Source: Candidatus Hadarchaeota archaeon
GTDB lineage: Archaea; CAYQAE01; CAYVLA01
Reading direction: 5' to 3'
NCBI GenBank assembly: GCA_964621445.1
Contig: CAZUNO010000011.1
Span: 1-64,000, forward strand
Length of the DNA stretch: 64,000 nucleotides
Shown here piece after piece: positions 39,907-63,577 of this stretch. Position 1 is the first letter of the stretch. Each line of letters starts with the position of its first letter. The translations under genes were made by a program, and so were the position numbers. The notes under the pieces were generated by a model. It ran no database searches and was not told where the DNA came from. It saw only the letters and a list, made by a program, of their open reading frames with translations.

Positions 39907-41577
39907 TTGTCCTCAGAACTGGAACTCGACTTCTACACCACCATGCGTGATATTGAGTCCCGGGAAGAAGACCTACGGGAGGCCGGTGAGAGGAATGAAG
40001 AGAGTCAGTCGTTTCTAGGTAGGAAATCCGGTCTTAGGACTCTTTTGGTGGCGATTTTAGCCATTCTGGTAATTGCCCTGGTTGTATACCTCCTGCATCT
40101 GGCTGGGTTTTTCGCGGCTCCCCGGGGCCAGCTTCTTTGGCGCGGTGCTTACCGCTCGCTGTCCGACGATTACCAGGAGCTGGAATCGCTTCACGGCAAT
40201 CAGTCCCGATCGCTGAGCCAGGCTCGTGAGGAAAAGGAGAAATGGGAGAATGAGGCGGAATGGTTGCGGTCGGCCCTGGAGGCCAGGGAATCAAGGCTGG
40301 ATGAAATCCAGGCGGAGATCGAGATCTGCAGGGAGGAGCTGGGCCGGACCAGGGGTGAGCTGGAAAAGGCCCGGTGCGAATACCTTCGGGCAGCCGAGCT
40401 GCTGAATCGGACCAGGAGGGAAAGGGACGATTACCGGTCATTATCCTCGGTCCTGAGGCATGAACTCTGTGTAACCCGATCAAACCTAACTGCAGCCAGG
40501 CGGGAGCTTGAGATTCGCATGGCCGAGCTAGCCTCGCTCCGGGAGGAGGTGAAAGGGCTCCAAGAACAATTGGAGGCCAGCCGGGACGATAGGGACCAAT
40601 GGATATCCAGACTCCACGAACTGGAACTGGAATACCAGGAGCTCATGTGCAGGCTTAAGATCTGCGAGCTCGAGGAGGCCAGGTGGAGGGACCTATACCT
40701 CGAGGAGCTGGCCGAGCTTGAGGAGGCCCTTGAAAGATGCGGAAATCGGACCAGGTCCCTTTCCCAGGCCCTGGATGACTGCAGGTCAAGAAACCGGGAA
40801 TTGAGGGCGGAAAATGAGGAGGTCCTCCTGGAGCTGGAGCGGGTAATTTCCGAGCGGGACAGGTGGAAGGAGGCCTACCGGGAGCTCAACCGGTCATACA
40901 GGTTGCTCCAGGAGGAGCTGGGGGCTCTCAGGGAGAGGTGTGCAAATATCAGCGCTGCCCTGGAGGAGGTCACGCGGGAGAGGGACCGGTGGGAGAACCT
41001 GTACGGTGAATTGGAGGCGAGCTACCGGACCTGTCTCTCAAGGCTGGAATACTGGAGGAACAGGTGTGATGAGCTCATGGCTGACCTGGAGACCGTCCAG
41101 GCCGAAAACGAGGAGCTATCCGACCAGCTGGAGGAATGCAGCTCCCGGGTGAACGAGCTGGAGGCCACCTGCGACTCACTCCAGGAAGAACTTGACCAGG
41201 CCCTTTCCAGCGTCGAGTACTGGCATGGACTGTACGATGGGCTATGGAACATCACCCTCTCGCTGGAGATCGGGAACATATCGGTCCTGGACCGGGAGTG
41301 TGGAAAGCCATCAAGGATTTCGGCGGAGATAATGGCCTGCGTGAGCACCACGGAATCCCCCATGTACCTGTTTCTTGAATACTGGGCTGAACCATTGGAC
41401 TGCGTCTGGGGATATGGGACCATTACCGAGGAAGTTTCCCAATGGGAATCAACGTGCAAGACCTTCAATGTCACCCTCGATTTCGGTACCGGGGTGGGAC
41501 CCTACAAGGTGATATCCAAGGGCAGGCTTCAACCAATCCATGGGGCGGCGGAAGCCGAGAAGCGGGGTCCGGATTAA
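39907..41577 (+). CDS. Membrane-anchored long coiled-coil protein, Cys-rich, with a beta-rich C-terminal domain
   Basis: One TM near residues 45-70, ~360 aa of heptad repeats, several N-x-S/T sequons. Confidence 0.75.
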   Translation: MSSELELDFYTTMRDIESREEDLREAGERNEESQSFLGRKSGLRTLLVAILAILVIALVVYLLHLAGFFAAPRGQLLWRGAYRSLSDDYQELESLHGNQSRSLSQAREEKEKWENEAEWLRSALEARESRLDEIQAEIEICREELGRTRGELEKARCEYLRAAELLNRTRRERDDYRSLSSVLRHELCVTRSNLTAARRELEIRMAELASLREEVKGLQEQLEASRDDRDQWISRLHELELEYQELMCRLKICELEEARWRDLYLEELAELEEALERCGNRTRSLSQALDDCRSRNRELRAENEEVLLELERVISERDRWKEAYRELNRSYRLLQEELGALRERCANISAALEEVTRERDRWENLYGELEASYRTCLSRLEYWRNRCDELMADLETVQAENEELSDQLEECSSRVNELEATCDSLQEELDQALSSVEYWHGLYDGLWNITLSLEIGNISVLDRECGKPSRISAEIMACVSTTESPMYLFLEYWAEPLDCVWGYGTITEEVSQWESTCKTFNVTLDFGTGVGPYKVISKGRLQPIHGAAEAEKRGPD

Positions 41578-41708: not shown

Positions 41709-41724
41709 CGATAACTTTTTAAGT
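41709..41724 (+). promoter_or_regulatory. BRE/TATA-like promoter upstream of the large structured RNA
   Basis: CGATAAC-TTTTTAAG about 25-30 nt before the first paired base of the RNA. Confidence 0.55.
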
Positions 41725-41744
41725 TAGAATGACATATATTCATT

Positions 41745-42400
41745 CCCTGTCGTGGCCGGCAGGGCAGGTAGGAAGCAGACAGTCACGGGAAATGGTTCGA
41801 TGTCCTTTGGATGTCGAGCCGGTGACGAACGCCTCTTTCCAGGGCCTATGTCCGTGGGAAGTCGCGTTCCAAGCCACGGGATTGATCGGCTGCGATCGAT
41901 TTCCCCGAAACCAGTCGAAAAAAGTGGCCTCCCGTAAAGGGTCTCGCTCCGTTGAGGTACGAGCCATCGTCGAGTATCCCTGGTACAGTGGCTTTCTCGG
42001 TGCGAGCAAAGGAGCAGGTATCCAGGTCCGAGCCTCAGAAGAGGACTGGTGACTTGCTTTACGTCGCTTCCCTGCAAACCTGCCGGTTTGACGGGCACAG
42101 GAGCGGTAAGGAGACGGATGCTGCCGGGAACAAGCAACAGGTTCCGGCTTGTTGCTTGGTGGAAGTTGATGGGTGTGTGAACACGCATCGGCAATGCCGC
42201 CGGGAGCACCTTCGTACCTTCTGATGTTTCCTCAGGTGGTATGGAGAAGGCGGCAATCCGTAAAAGGATCCGCCCGTTGAGGCGGAGTCGAGCACAAACT
42301 CCCAAGTAAGTTCGACTTCTAACGGGCGGAAGGAACGGACCTCCACGCCAAACCTCAAGAGAGGTGTGGCGGTCTGTTTTGTCCGTCTCCCCGCAATTCC
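41745..42400 (+). ncRNA. Large (~650 nt) highly structured non-coding RNA of unknown class
   Basis: Two closed domains (41746-42095 and 42103-42394) with more than 12 helices; mismatches are G-U on the + strand; GNRA loop; no credible ORF; TATA box upstream. Confidence 0.75.
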
Positions 42401-42535
42401 CTATTTACACATCCCTTCTGGACTAGTTGTGGCTACATTTCTTCTCATTTTTTGATACTAATGGCGTAACACTGCGTATATTCCGGCAGGTTTTTATCGT
42501 CCAAAAACGGTCATTATCCCTGGGTAGGTGATGAT

Positions 42536-43714
42536 TTGCCGAAATACATGTACGCGGATTCGACCGAGTTCGGTCTGCAGCGTGACTTCATAGATATACT
42601 CGAAAGGTTCTCGGACGCGGCGATAGAGGCCATTCCAGACCAGCGGGAAATCCTGGAGTTGAAAGAAAAGATAGCCAACAAGGAGTCGGAGAAGGAGTCC
42701 ACCCTTACCAGGATAGACAAGTATGGCCAGGAGATAGATTCCTCGATAGAGGACGTGACCAGGCGTTTCGGGGCGGAGGAGTTTGGCCCGGTCCTAGAGA
42801 GGATGAAGGCAGCGGCCTCGGAATACGTCAATGACTTTCGGCAGGCCAGGCTTGAGGCCTTTGAGAAGGAGATGAGCTCCCTGAAGGACAGCCTATCCAA
42901 GAAACAGGCCAGCCTGCTCCAGGTCCTGCAGGACTTCCTGTACCATGACCCCCTGAAGATGGAGCGTCTGGTGGTCGAGGCCTCTCTGGATGGTGAAAGG
43001 TACGATTCCAGGGCCGAGACCTCCTGCCAGAACGGCGTGTTCTACGTATTCAAGCTGGACTTCTTCGACAGAAAAATGGAAGTTAAGGATCTGATAGAGA
43101 AGAAGGTGGAGATACCGGCAGCCATGAAGAAGACCATCATGGGGAAGGAAAAGAAGCCCCGGTTTATCTCCCTAGATGACTGGTGTATAGAGGACCTGAG
43201 GTACGAATCGAATGGGGAGACGGTTCTCAGAGCCACCCTGACCGGCGAGCCGGGCAAGGAGGACTCCCCTAAACTGCAGCTAACCCTGACCCCGGGGGAG
43301 GAAAGGGTTGAGTCGGTTGTGTACACGGACGAGGATGGGGATAGCCTGGACATACTGAAGGACCCCGAGCTCAGGAAGCACGTGGACGAGAACCTGGAGG
43401 AGTATGCCAAGTTCCTCCTGGGCCACTGCTTCACCCTTACCAATAGGAAGAAGGACATGGTCGATGTCCAGATGGACGACCAGGGTCTGGTGGAGAACGA
43501 CCTGGCCGAGAAGTTCATGGTAAGATGCGCAAAGGAATACGCCCCCACCGTGGCCAAGATAAGGGAGAAGGGCCTGGTGGACAAGGAGCTCAACCTGAAG
43601 GTAGAGGACGTCGAGGGCAGGAGAACTGAGCTTTATATGGATATAGAGGAATACAGGTCCAAGATGAAGGCCATCCCTCGCGGGTCAGAGATGTGTTCCA
43701 TCATGGGTCTGTAG
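42536..43714 (+). CDS. Hypothetical protein (392 aa, acidic, N-terminal coiled coil)
   Basis: Long ORF with typical codon usage; AGGTGA upstream of the TTG start. Confidence 0.85.
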   Translation: MPKYMYADSTEFGLQRDFIDILERFSDAAIEAIPDQREILELKEKIANKESEKESTLTRIDKYGQEIDSSIEDVTRRFGAEEFGPVLERMKAAASEYVNDFRQARLEAFEKEMSSLKDSLSKKQASLLQVLQDFLYHDPLKMERLVVEASLDGERYDSRAETSCQNGVFYVFKLDFFDRKMEVKDLIEKKVEIPAAMKKTIMGKEKKPRFISLDDWCIEDLRYESNGETVLRATLTGEPGKEDSPKLQLTLTPGEERVESVVYTDEDGDSLDILKDPELRKHVDENLEEYAKFLLGHCFTLTNRKKDMVDVQMDDQGLVENDLAEKFMVRCAKEYAPTVAKIREKGLVDKELNLKVEDVEGRRTELYMDIEEYRSKMKAIPRGSEMCSIMGL

Positions 43715-47176: not shown

Positions 47177-49543
47177 GTGGAAAATCATGACGATCGAGAT
47201 TGGGTAGTATCTATCCCGGAGGGTTGCCTACTGGACGGGGGAGTAAGGGTTTGTCTTCGAGATCTAAAGGACAAGGCGCGGGAAATAGGCATTAGCATTG
47301 AAGTCGGTTCAGGGGTGAGGGGGAGAAACATGTTGATAGTGGGCGATACCTCGAGGAACCCGCTCACCGCCGATCTGGTCAGCCGAGGCCTGATAAAAAC
47401 CAGGGAGGTCTCTACCCAGGGATATGAGATCCTGAACACGGCTTTTGAGGGGACTAGAGCGGTCGTGGTACGCGGCGGATCGCTGACCGGTGAGATCTAT
47501 GGACTCTATGATATCATGGATGGGATAAGTATCTCCAATCGAATCGACCACCCTGATTCCAGGAGGGAACCCGACCTAAAAATGAGGTACACACGCATCC
47601 CGGTGAGGTGCAAGAGGGACGTCCAACGGGCTTTCAGATATCGGCTTAACATGGTATTCGGGGAGAACCCGCTGAACCTCCTGCCTTGGGGAAGCGATGA
47701 CCTGCGGGAGAGGAACCGGATGTTGAGAGAGGAAACACGAGACCTGGCCCGCTATGCCCACTCCCTGCACATGAAGTTCCTGGCCATGGGCACAGAGTTC
47801 ACCTACCACCCCGATCTCCTGGACGAGTTCAAGGCCTCCCTGGACCCATCTGATCCCGGGCTCTGGGAGGCCTTTCGGGCCAAGTTCAGGCGCCTGCTGG
47901 AGGCAGTACCGGAGCTGGACGGCGTGTGCACCTTCACCGGGGAGGAGCAGAGATACTGGGATCCATTTCGGACCTTTGACCTCGTGCACGGGGGGGCGGA
48001 GTGCGGCTGGTCCCTGGAGAGGCGGTTCCGTACCTATGTCAAGGCCCTGTGGGATGTCGTGGTCGGGGAGTTCGATAAGCTCTTGGTGGTTCGCACCTGG
48101 AATACCAATTCATATGAGCAGCATTCCCAGCCCGAGGTCTATGCTGGGATTTTCAATGAGGACGTTCCCAGGAGGAACCTGTACCTGGTTCCCAGCTTCA
48201 CCCAAAACGATAGATGGTGGTTCCAGGCCTATAACCCTACCTTCAACCTGACTTCACACTCTATGATGACCGTATTCGAGACCATGGATTACCATGATGG
48301 GGGTCAGTTCTTTCCCACCTTTCCGGGATTCTACTTCCAGGCCGGGCTGGAGCATATCATGGGCGGGGGTGAAGGAAACCTCGAGGGCGCCAGTCTGGAC
48401 CTACCCCGGGAGGAGGGCTGGGATACCCGGAACCTGACCGCCTACACGGTCACCCGGCTCATGTGGGATCACACGGAAGAGCCGAGTAGGATAGCCGAGG
48501 ACTTCTGCGCGGTCAAATTTGGCAAGGAGGTCGCTCAGGAACTGGCGGAGATCCTCCTCCTCTCCCCGGTGGCCTACAAGTACGGACTTTACATAGAGCC
48601 GGTGACCAGGGGCAGTTTCAGCAGCCTGACCCATATTCGCACAGGCGGGTTCATAGTGGACGGTTATCCGAAAATCGATAACGGCAGGGCCCACCTGGAG
48701 TTTCTTAGGGGCATATACCTCCGGTGCAAACCCTGGATGGCGGAAAACATGATGTACCTGGACCACGGGCTGGACACCGCGAAGATGATGGAGGCCAAAT
48801 TTGATGAAATCGAAAGCCGGGTGGAGAATGGGGAGGAGGTTGAAAGGTCCTTGAGATACATGCGGCTTCTTATCGAGGTGAACAATCTCTATGTAAGGAC
48901 ATTCACTAGCTATTTTGAGTATATGGAGAACCCGACGGAGGAGATCAAAGGGAGCCTGGCGAAACTGCATGAAGGGCTCCGCGCCAATCTCCGGTGCTTC
49001 ATGAACTGCCCGTGCTTTGAATTCAGGACCCACGGGGTTGACCGGCTCCTAGCCAGTGTGGAGGATGCACTCATGGACCGAGATGCGGCCCGGAGAAAGC
49101 TCGCGCGGTCACCGACCACCGCAGAGATCGAGGAGAGGGTCCTGGAACAGCAAAAATGCCACCGTGAGATAATCCATGATCAGGGCGACGGTCTAGTCGA
49201 TCTAGTAAAAGTCATGTATTGGGAGGGAAGGGTGGACGGCAGGGATATACTATCCATACAGGAGGATAACCTGAGCGTCGAACACCTGCGATGGGATCAT
49301 ATCTCACATGAGAGCAGCGAGTTTTTCTCCCCACTCCCCAAGAGAGAGGGATCAGTGATAATTGAGGACATCGAATCCCAATATATGCACCCCTTCGTGA
49401 TCCAGCAACCCACTCGTGATAACGATTTCACCGCCAGGATCTACCTGAATGACGTTCCGGGGGGTGCACACTGGTGCAGGTTCAATCTTTACTTCATTAG
49501 CAGGAGACCAGAAAAACTGGGACTCGATTTTTGGGAGGAATGA
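47177..49543 (+). CDS. Hypothetical protein, glycoside-hydrolase-like architecture
   Basis: N-terminus QGYEI...VVRGGSLTGEIYGLYDI resembles the GH20/GH67 N-domain; a TIM-barrel-like region follows. Confidence 0.65.
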   Translation: MENHDDRDWVVSIPEGCLLDGGVRVCLRDLKDKAREIGISIEVGSGVRGRNMLIVGDTSRNPLTADLVSRGLIKTREVSTQGYEILNTAFEGTRAVVVRGGSLTGEIYGLYDIMDGISISNRIDHPDSRREPDLKMRYTRIPVRCKRDVQRAFRYRLNMVFGENPLNLLPWGSDDLRERNRMLREETRDLARYAHSLHMKFLAMGTEFTYHPDLLDEFKASLDPSDPGLWEAFRAKFRRLLEAVPELDGVCTFTGEEQRYWDPFRTFDLVHGGAECGWSLERRFRTYVKALWDVVVGEFDKLLVVRTWNTNSYEQHSQPEVYAGIFNEDVPRRNLYLVPSFTQNDRWWFQAYNPTFNLTSHSMMTVFETMDYHDGGQFFPTFPGFYFQAGLEHIMGGGEGNLEGASLDLPREEGWDTRNLTAYTVTRLMWDHTEEPSRIAEDFCAVKFGKEVAQELAEILLLSPVAYKYGLYIEPVTRGSFSSLTHIRTGGFIVDGYPKIDNGRAHLEFLRGIYLRCKPWMAENMMYLDHGLDTAKMMEAKFDEIESRVENGEEVERSLRYMRLLIEVNNLYVRTFTSYFEYMENPTEEIKGSLAKLHEGLRANLRCFMNCPCFEFRTHGVDRLLASVEDALMDRDAARRKLARSPTTAEIEERVLEQQKCHREIIHDQGDGLVDLVKVMYWEGRVDGRDILSIQEDNLSVEHLRWDHISHESSEFFSPLPKREGSVIIEDIESQYMHPFVIQQPTRDNDFTARIYLNDVPGGAHWCRFNLYFISRRPEKLGLDFWEE

Positions 49544-62131: not shown

Positions 62132-63577
62132 TCAGCCCTTGGTTACGGCCAGAGGCCTCAGCTTGGCGACTTTTCTGCTTATTCCCACCTTGTGGCAGAC
62201 ATCTACAACGTTATTAATGTCCTTGTAAGCGCCGGGGGCTTCCTCCGCGATCACCGGCATACTTGCAGCTTTAACTATGATTCCCTCCTTTTCCAGATCG
62301 CTCTGCACGGTCTCTCCCCAGAAGTTCTTCTTGGCCTTGGTGCGGCTGAGTATTCTGCCGGCGCCGTGACAGGTGGAGCCGAATGTCTCGTTCATGGCGG
62401 TCTCCGTTCCCACCAGCAGGTAGGAGGCGGTGCCCATGTCTCCGGGTATGATCACCGGCTGTCCTATCTCCGAATAGTCGTCGGGTATGGAGTCGCTTCC
62501 CGGGCCGAAGCTACGGGTTGCTCCCTTACGGTGTACGCATAGTTCCATATCCTCTCCATCTACGGTGTGATACTCCATCTTCCCGATGTTGTGGGCCACG
62601 TCGTAGACCATGCTCATGTCCAGGCTCTCCGGGCTCTCGCCAAGCACGTCCTGGAAGGTCTCCCTCACCCAGTGCATTATCATCTGCCTGTTGCCCCATG
62701 CGTAGTTGGCCCCTGCTGACATGGCCGCCATGTAGGAGTCGGCCTCCGGGGTGCCAAGGGGTGCACAGGCCAGCTCGCGGTCCGGGATGTCTATGTCGTA
62801 CTTCTTTACCGCTTTCTCCATAACCTTGAGGTAGTCGGAGCATATCTGGTGCCCGCAACCCCTGGAACCGGTATGTATCATGGTTGTTACCTGGTTCTCG
62901 TGATCTATCCCCATCACTTCGGCGGCTTTCTGGTCGAAGATCTTGTCCACGTACTGGATTTCCAGGAAATGGTTTCCGCTACCCAGACTTCCCAGCTGGG
63001 GGATCCCCCTTTTCTTGGCCCTGTCGCTGATAACCGAGGAGTCGGCCCTTTCCAGAGACCCGTTTTCCTCCATATGCTCCAGGTCCTCGTCCCAGCCGTA
63101 GCCGTTCTCCACGGCCCAGGCGGCACCTCTCTCCAACACCTGTTCTATCTCCCTGCTGTCCAGCTTCACCCTGCCCTTACTGCCCAGTCCGGAGGGGACA
63201 TTCTTGAAAGCTGTGTTTATTAGGGATTTCAGGTTGGACTTTATGTCCTCCTTGTCCAGGTTGGTGCGGAGCAGCCTGACTCCGCAGTTGATGTCATAAC
63301 CTATTCCACCGGGGCTTATTACCCCGTCCTCTGAGTCGAAGGCTGCCACCCCTCCGATGGGAAAGCCGTATCCAAGGTGGACATCCGGCATGGCCATGGA
63401 GTAATTGACGATGCCCGGGAGGCATGCGATATTGACCACCTGGCCTATGGTCCGATTGTCGATTTCCTTCAATAATTTCGAGTCAGCGATTACCCTCCCC
63501 GGCACCCTCATACAGTCCTTGTAGCTGGCGGGGATCTCGTGAACGAGTTCGGATATCTTCTTCATTTGGTTGCTCAT
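62132..63577 (-). CDS. rtcB: RNA-splicing ligase RtcB (no intein)
   Basis: [45 protein letters not shown] and EEAPGAYK motifs. Confidence 0.97.

Follow-up and report, generated by a model that had tools for sequence, protein, structure and literature searches.

A previously undescribed archaeal RNA gene with two homologous modules, each closed by a bulge-helix-bulge motif

To our knowledge, large and intricately folded RNAs of unknown function come almost only from bacteria. Examples are the Rfam families OLE, ROOL, GOLLD and raiA (bioRxiv 10.1101/2024.12.08.627333), long RNAs that are rich in conserved helices, contain GNRA-type loops, pseudoknots and single-stranded motifs that do not vary, and occur in a narrow phylogenetic range, with no known function. 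The closest archaeal systems share the bulge-helix-bulge (BHB) motif, a 4-bp central helix set between two 3-nt bulges, which also flanks the 16S and 23S rRNAs and gives rise to circular pre-rRNAs (PMC7714728). The archaeal rRNA operon combines one promoter, two tandem structured RNAs, long stems with a 3-4-3 BHB motif and ligated products, and the same source reports non-rRNA endonuclease substrates that end as circles, namely the BHB intron in the 5′ untranslated region (UTR) of HVO_1309 and tRNA-intron circles. In Thermoproteus, a permuted signal recognition particle (SRP) RNA of ~300 nt, which is neither rRNA nor tRNA, is matured by BHB cleavage and circularisation (PMC4731332). Here, we describe an RNA gene at positions 41745–42400 (+ strand) of a 64,000-nt stretch of DNA from a Candidatus Hadarchaeota archaeon (the window; positions 1–64,000 of contig CAZUNO010000011.1, assembly GCA_964621445.1). 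The genome that holds the window is referred to as G000.

The locus at 41745–42400 is a genuine archaeal RNA gene that had not been described before. Sequence comparison suggests, with moderate confidence, that it is an independently transcribed precursor gene from which two homologous structured modules would be excised and circularised. The RNA family is new and without a known relative, and the predicted processing route is of a known kind. Like the rRNA operon, the locus has one promoter, two tandem structured RNAs and long stems with 3-4-3 BHB motifs, with processing predicted here, but its RNAs are ~300 nt each, homologous to each other, not rRNA and assigned to no Rfam family. The Thermoproteus SRP RNA is a known universal RNA, and the canonical SRP RNA of G000 lies elsewhere, on another contig (G000:C16:48115-48423, 196.5 bits). 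The HVO_1309 intron and the tRNA-intron circles differ from the present RNAs in their size (46–103 nt) and in lacking an elaborate conserved fold. The RNA at this locus has the listed traits of OLE, ROOL, GOLLD and raiA, from its length, helices, loops and pseudoknots to its narrow range, but these families show no sequence or structure match to it, and it is archaeal, contains two homologous modules and carries BHB sites.

The RNA gene lies in a GC-rich block with AT-rich flanks, between open reading frames (ORFs) of 556 aa (39907–41577) and 392 aa (42536–43714). The + strand of 41745–42400 folds with a minimum free energy (MFE) of -321.3 kcal/mol, compared with -246.8 ± 4.7 kcal/mol for 20 dinucleotide shuffles, none of which folds as well (z = -15.8). 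The reverse complement reaches only -259 kcal/mol (z = -4.3). Because the - strand folds far worse than the + strand, the block is read as RNA from the + strand and not as a set of DNA palindromes. A first-pass annotation of this DNA had proposed a structured non-coding RNA on the + strand, pointing to imperfect pairs that are G-U on that strand, and had named a folding z-score, a covariation analysis, an nhmmer homologue search and a cmscan of Rfam as checks. The strand-specific z-scores fit its G-U observation, and the proposal as a whole is borne out by the fold together with the covariation and the separate promoter described below. Both closing stems drawn in that annotation are present in the MFE or consensus structure, as are the GGUUCGA/UCGAGCC helix, the hairpins CCC-GUAAA-GGG, CCUC-AGAA-GAGG, GUGU-GUGA-ACAC and ACCUC-AAGA-GAGGU, and the helices UGCCGCC/GGCGGCA, UUCGUACC/GGUAUGGA, UCCGCCC.../...GGGCGGA, GAGUCGAGC/GUUCGACUU and GGAACGGACC/GGUCUGUUUU. 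The CCAGGG/CCCUGG and CCGUGG/CCACGG pairings are supported by neither structure. The long-range AGUCAC/GUGACU pair is also unsupported; GUCAC pairs locally with GUGAC at 41822–41826 in a covarying helix (consensus helix 4).

The fold is conserved among nine copies of the RNA that are 53–79% identical. RNAalifold with six copies yields 169 pairs, 68 of which show compensatory changes. When the nine-copy alignment was scored with the consensus structure from the six full-length rows, standard pairs accounted for 87.3% of 1507 pair cells, in comparison with 35–50% after the 3′ partners had been slid by 1–3 columns. Changes on both sides of the pair occur in 82 of the 195 consensus pairs, a count that overstates independence because the structure was derived from the same, related sequences. 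Column shuffles give 43.4 ± 4.2 such pairs (0 of 500 shuffles reach 82) and the slid controls 16–36; despite the relatedness of the copies, the slid controls are exceeded by a wide margin.

The alignment was also examined for codon-type conservation, which the first-pass annotation had named as an observation that would speak against an RNA, and none was found, with covariation present instead. Substitution rates at the three codon positions are 0.376, 0.388 and 0.391 (p = 0.67), without periodicity, and 13–20 of the 15–23 indel runs per pair of copies are not multiples of three. Stop-free antisense frames of 183–218 aa in five of the six full copies could be taken as a protein-coding gene on the - strand. 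These frames are accounted for by the scarcity of stop trinucleotides on the - strand (only 7 among 654), and the absence of codon periodicity, the mostly frame-shifting indels and the lack of a Pfam match to the antisense ORF of the window reduce such a gene to a negligible probability. The ORFs overlapping the RNA are thus spurious, as the first reading of the DNA had assumed. In the window, the long antisense open frame that lies over the RNA spans 41724–42305 (-) and is not a gene.

The two domains of the RNA are homologous modules that arose by tandem duplication. Query positions 176–338, from module 1, also match the second half of the RNA of a relative (nhmmer E = 5e-15), and the two modules, once cut apart, can be aligned over their whole length, with one extra hairpin in module 1. 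The modules have in common a GNRA-type hairpin (CCC-GUAAA-GGG), CCGUUGAGG, a variable hairpin with a UCCC loop, GAGCAAAGGA, an invariant CCUC-ANNA-GAGG hairpin within a CCAG/CUGG stem, and a closing stem followed by CYGCAA. The invariant hairpin is CCUC-AGAA-GAGG in module 1 (42033–42044, +), inside a CCAG...CUGG stem with a 7-nt asymmetric loop, and CCUC-AAGA-GAGG in module 2 (42353–42364, +). Its stem letters are the same in all module cores (16 of 16). The CCAG/CUGG internal loop was inspected by eye as a possible K-turn, which was rejected because the loop contains no tandem G-A pairs.

Each module is closed by a BHB motif. In module 1 (+ strand), the outer helix is formed by a 5′ strand at 41746–41763 and a 3′ strand at 42079–42095; it is present in the MFE structure and as consensus helix 1, whose 11 pairs include 5 with changes on both sides and are formed in 98.5% of cells. 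The 5′ half of the motif (41764–41770) consists of the central strand GCAG (41764–41767) and the bulge GUA (41768–41770), and the 3′ half (42072–42078) consists of the central strand CUGC (42072–42075) and the bulge AAA (42076–42078). The outer, central and inner helices of module 1 contain 10, 4 and 6 bp, respectively. In module 2 (+ strand), the 5′ half (42100–42109) comprises the outer strand GGA (42100–42102), the central strand GCGG (42103–42106) and the bulge UAA (42107–42109), and the 3′ half (42391–42400) comprises the central strand CCGC (42391–42394), the bulge AAU (42395–42397) and the outer strand UCC (42398–42400), giving helices of 3, 4 and 11 bp. In both modules, the 5′ bulge is located between the central and inner helices and the 3′ bulge between the central and outer helices.

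The BHB geometry is conserved among the copies. A 4-nt central strand with a bulge of exactly 3 nt is found on the 5′ side of module 1 in 6 of 6 copies and on each of the other three sides in 9 of 9. All four central pairs form in the window copy; in the copy of G002, an A-C mismatch replaces one of the pairs. Bulge nucleotides predicted to stay in the products never vary (A at the third position of the 5′ bulge and AA at the first two positions of the 3′ bulge), unlike those predicted to be lost, which differ among the copies. The BHB framing of each module points to the excision of two ~300-nt RNAs. The single OLE-like molecule of ~650 nt envisaged in the first-pass annotation is probably not the correct description, given two homologous tandem modules that are each framed by a BHB motif. 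On that reading, the gene would encode one linear, ornate RNA with two domains, in which the BHB-like irregularities are structural and not processing sites. The whole transcript does fold as two closed domains, the outer helix of module 2 is weak and cleavage is a prediction. We nevertheless regard a single linear RNA as unlikely, since the exact 3-4-3 geometry and its handedness are kept in both modules of all copies despite 15–23 indel runs per pair of copies, the retained bulge positions are invariant while the discarded ones vary, and the enzymes for cleavage and ligation, EndA and RtcB, are encoded in the genome.

The splicing endonuclease is represented in G000 by two EndA-like loci, G000:C2:82920-83723 (-) and G000:C9:29229-29699 (+), each with a pair of PF01974 domain matches within one frame (387 aa and 512 aa, respectively). 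The RNA ligase RtcB is encoded in the window itself at 62135–63442 (-; 609 bits), ~20 kb downstream of the RNA, a proximity that is probably a coincidence. Predicted tRNA introns of the same genome were used as a control for the cut sites. Aragorn reports introns in 26 of the 42 tRNA genes of G000, several of which occupy non-canonical positions or have implausible lengths (up to 2214 nt). Four of the five introns with strict BHB geometry (Val, two Gly and Phe) use the 5-bp anticodon stem as the outer helix, have a 4-bp central helix and show the same handedness as the BHB motifs of the RNA, and their splice sites follow the second bulge nucleotide. When this rule is applied to module 1, cuts are predicted after 41769 and 42077, and the excised RNA would span 41770–42077 (+; 308 nt), as indicated by BHB geometry and covariation. 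In module 2, the predicted cuts after 42108 and 42396 would release an RNA of 288 nt (42109–42396, +), as indicated by BHB geometry and homology to module 1.

In the proposed mechanism, EndA would cut after the second nucleotide of each 3-nt bulge and release RNAs of ~308 and ~288 nt, and RtcB would then circularise each RNA by ligating its ends, as with archaeal pre-16S and pre-23S rRNA. Within each circle, the inner helix would be capped by a 7-nt loop made of the 3′ strand of the former central helix and three A residues. The two circles would be made in equal amounts and might act as stable folded RNAs, either as protein scaffolds or as partners of each other. If two paralogous folded RNAs are thus produced 1:1, they may work together.

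Several points weigh against excision and circularisation. The limits of transcription, the cleavage and the circularisation are deduced from the DNA sequence, and the role proposed for the circles is a guess. Only 5 of 20 short Aragorn introns show strict BHB geometry; real substrates may therefore be looser than the strict test, or many of the intron predictions may be wrong. The outer helix of module 2 has 3 bp in the window; by eye, it has 3–5 bp in most copies and forms poorly in G001. An endonuclease with a strict requirement for the complete motif might cut module 2 badly. The bulge letters could also be invariant for a reason unrelated to retention in the product. Finally, the covariation counts come from nine related sequences of one family and from a structure derived from them.

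The geometry would also permit the opposite outcome, in which the modules are discarded as BHB introns and the functional RNA results from the ligation of leader, spacer and trailer. In rRNA operons, the flanks are likewise ligated after BHB cleavage. Conservation at the present locus, however, lies inside the modules, in invariant loops, pseudoknots and hairpins, whereas the leader, spacer and trailer differ from copy to copy in both sequence and length, so that functional flanks are very improbable.

The pseudoknots of the modules were examined in the aligned copies. In pseudoknot B, a GGRAN motif pairs with a NUYCC hairpin loop, and all five pairs are formed in 15 of 15 modules, one of which uses GGAAG/CUUCC. 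In module 1, GGGAU (41878–41882) pairs with the loop AUCCC (41976–41980), and in module 2, GGGAG (42202–42206) pairs with the loop CUCCC (42299–42303), both on the + strand. Two compensatory changes and two wobble intermediates occur between modules; in a control, only 95 of 210 mismatched combinations of motif and loop pair fully. Candidate pseudoknot A would pair a bulge (CGGGAAA) with the loop of the hairpin that follows it. The bulge is GGGAAAU (41787–41793, +) in module 1 and complementary to 41899–41905, and it is GGGAACA (42126–42132, +) in module 2 and complementary to 42225–42231. Matched pairs form 6.9 bp on average versus 6.2 bp for mismatched ones, and one copy carries a multi-base compensatory variant; the pairing is weakly specific and support for pseudoknot A is weak.

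The RNA belongs to no known Rfam family, as the first-pass annotation had anticipated. In a scan of the whole window with Rfam 15 at gathering thresholds, no match was found in 41745–42400. When E-values up to 10 were permitted, the best matches scored 13.4 and 13.1 bits against thresholds of 90 and 104, which is noise. No Rfam intron family matches the RNA region, with group I and group II introns included in the models tested, and HEARO is likewise among the families that do not match. A canonical archaeal RNase P RNA is located on another contig of the same genome (G000:C17:11560-11900, 203 bits). Because the canonical copies of both RNase P RNA and SRP RNA sit elsewhere in the genome, the RNA at 41745–42400 is not a divergent copy of either, and its modules do not match the SRP model; the first-pass annotation had likewise seen hallmark motifs of neither. 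No description of the RNA was found in the literature searched, the coverage of which was incomplete.

Homologues of the RNA were found only in one small archaeal family, according to the sequence searches made. Nine copies, originating from four genomes of that family and from metagenome contigs, were used in the analysis. G000 contains a second full-length paralogue at G000:C29:24909-25570 (-; nhmmer E = 1.9e-55), and each of the remaining three genomes of the family carries one or two. In a blastn-type search of 61 archaeal genomes, matches were obtained in 4, G000 included, all of the same family, and none in the 57 genomes outside it. A covariance model, R1, was built from the 16 module cores and gives rough E-values. 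It matches 4 of the 5 species genomes of the phylum in the collection and, on 151 genomes sampled across archaea, the same family and a single 18-bit site in G026. The G026 site lies antisense within a MiaB-like methylthiotransferase gene (410-aa ORF; 415 bits to TIGR01578) and was on that account rejected as a chance match.

Pattern searches extended the survey to larger collections. A degenerate 22-nt motif, run over ~185,000 species genomes, gave 34 stretches, 4 of which were confirmed by nhmmer; these are contigs of three metagenome-assembled genomes, two labelled Candidatus Hadarchaeota archaeon and one labelled uncultured Thermococci archaeon. The same motif retrieved one stretch from viral contigs, which nhmmer did not confirm. 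A stricter motif yielded 7 stretches from metagenome contigs, all 7 confirmed, and these include the divergent copies L054 and L057, which are cut by contig ends. Overall, nhmmer matched 11 of 42 pattern-derived loci.

The L054 (2530–2948) and L057 (8093–8507) contigs break off at one shared position within module 1 and are identical over ~123 nt before they diverge. This pattern looks like an assembly break at a repeat common to two paralogous loci or like recent gene conversion. Paralogues within a genome also have features in common that their orthologues lack. Taken together, the likeness of within-genome paralogues and the L054/L057 identity suggest that sequence has been exchanged between the two loci.

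The upstream TATA element noted in the first-pass annotation proved to be conserved. In the window, a purine-rich stretch resembling the B recognition element (BRE) and a TATA element, ...TTTTTAAG, can be read from the sequence at 41709–41723 (+). A purine-rich element followed by TTTTTAAG or TTTTATAG is present in 6 of 6 copies with a 5′ flank and ends ~17–22 nt before the printed start of the RNA, a spacing expected from the archaeal BRE/TATA promoter consensus. The predicted primary transcript covers 41745–42454 (+), with its start placed by the distance to the TATA element and its end at a T-run at 42402–42406 or 42449–42454. T-runs are found 3′ of the RNA in most copies.

The copies occupy two locus types with unrelated downstream genes. 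In type 1, the window copy and the G003:C24 copy (L016 9378–10027) are placed between the same 556-aa coiled-coil gene and the same 392-aa gene, and the RNA of the G003:C24 copy is inverted relative to both. In type 2, the RNA is located 60–140 nt upstream of an operon for fumarase alpha/beta, a MOFRL-family kinase and endonuclease III on the same strand (four to five copies). The G000:C29 paralogue directly precedes the row of fumarase alpha/beta, MOFRL kinase, endonuclease III and MarR-like genes, and this row is conserved in three other genomes. The type 2 arrangement is what a cis-regulatory leader of the downstream gene, such as a giant riboswitch or a protein-binding leader, would produce. 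The window copy, however, precedes the unrelated 392-aa gene, from which the G003:C24 RNA points away, the RNA is followed by T-runs, and a separate TATA-like element precedes the fumarase gene in at least four type 2 copies. A leader would be expected to keep the same place and direction ahead of a single type of regulated gene and to be transcribed with it; the copies do not show this arrangement, and we find this explanation hard to credit.

The first-pass annotation had also offered the RNA of a mobile element as a possibility. Two copies per genome, one inverted copy and predicted products that are viroid-sized and possibly circular could be reconciled with a mobile or selfish element, whether an intron, a retroelement or the DNA copy of a viroid-like RNA. 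There are, however, only two loci per genome, which are syntenic across genomes, and their neighbours have housekeeping functions (primase large subunit, LysE, an ATP-grasp enzyme, a radical SAM enzyme, arginine decarboxylase and a potassium channel). No reverse transcriptase, transposase or integrase was found near the RNA loci, no Rfam intron family matched and the viral motif match was unconfirmed, and a mobile element is accordingly highly unlikely. The separate promoter, the T-runs, the two syntenic locus types, the inversion and the housekeeping neighbours argue against a leader and a mobile element alike.

If the precursor gene is indeed processed at its BHB sites, the splicing endonuclease would gain natural substrates that are neither rRNA nor tRNA, and archaea would gain a class of stable, circular, structured RNAs of ~300 nt. 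An archaeal family would broaden the bacteria-dominated picture of large folded RNAs, and its tandem-paralogue design suggests a heterodimeric RNA architecture that is suited to structural study. The bacterial OLE, ROOL and GOLLD RNAs reportedly form homo-oligomers. More tentatively, and with considerable doubt, the pair of circles may assemble into a pseudo-symmetric RNA machine, which would be an intramolecularly encoded counterpart of those oligomers. Such DNA-encoded, viroid-sized RNAs, made 1:1 and endowed with a catalytic or scaffolding activity unlike that of any known family, would represent the first archaea-specific class of large ornate RNAs.

Among the flanking genes, no conserved protein partner was found. 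The 556-aa flanking protein (39907–41577) has coiled-coil matches only, and the window ORFs of 392 aa (42536–43714, +) and 788 aa (47177–49543, +) have no Pfam or NCBIfam match. The sole Rfam match in the window is a tRNA gene with a long variable arm at 9–92 (-; 61.8 bits). Strain variants of the RNA were found as pieces that are 95–99% alike when DNA contigs of four runs were compared, and they occur in runs labelled hypersaline lake metagenome. Across these low-depth contigs, 18 strain differences were compared with the structure. Under the consensus structure, 9 keep a pair, 3 break a pair and 6 are unpaired; under the MFE structure, the same differences divide into 9, 6 and 3, respectively. 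The strain differences are mildly supportive of the fold.

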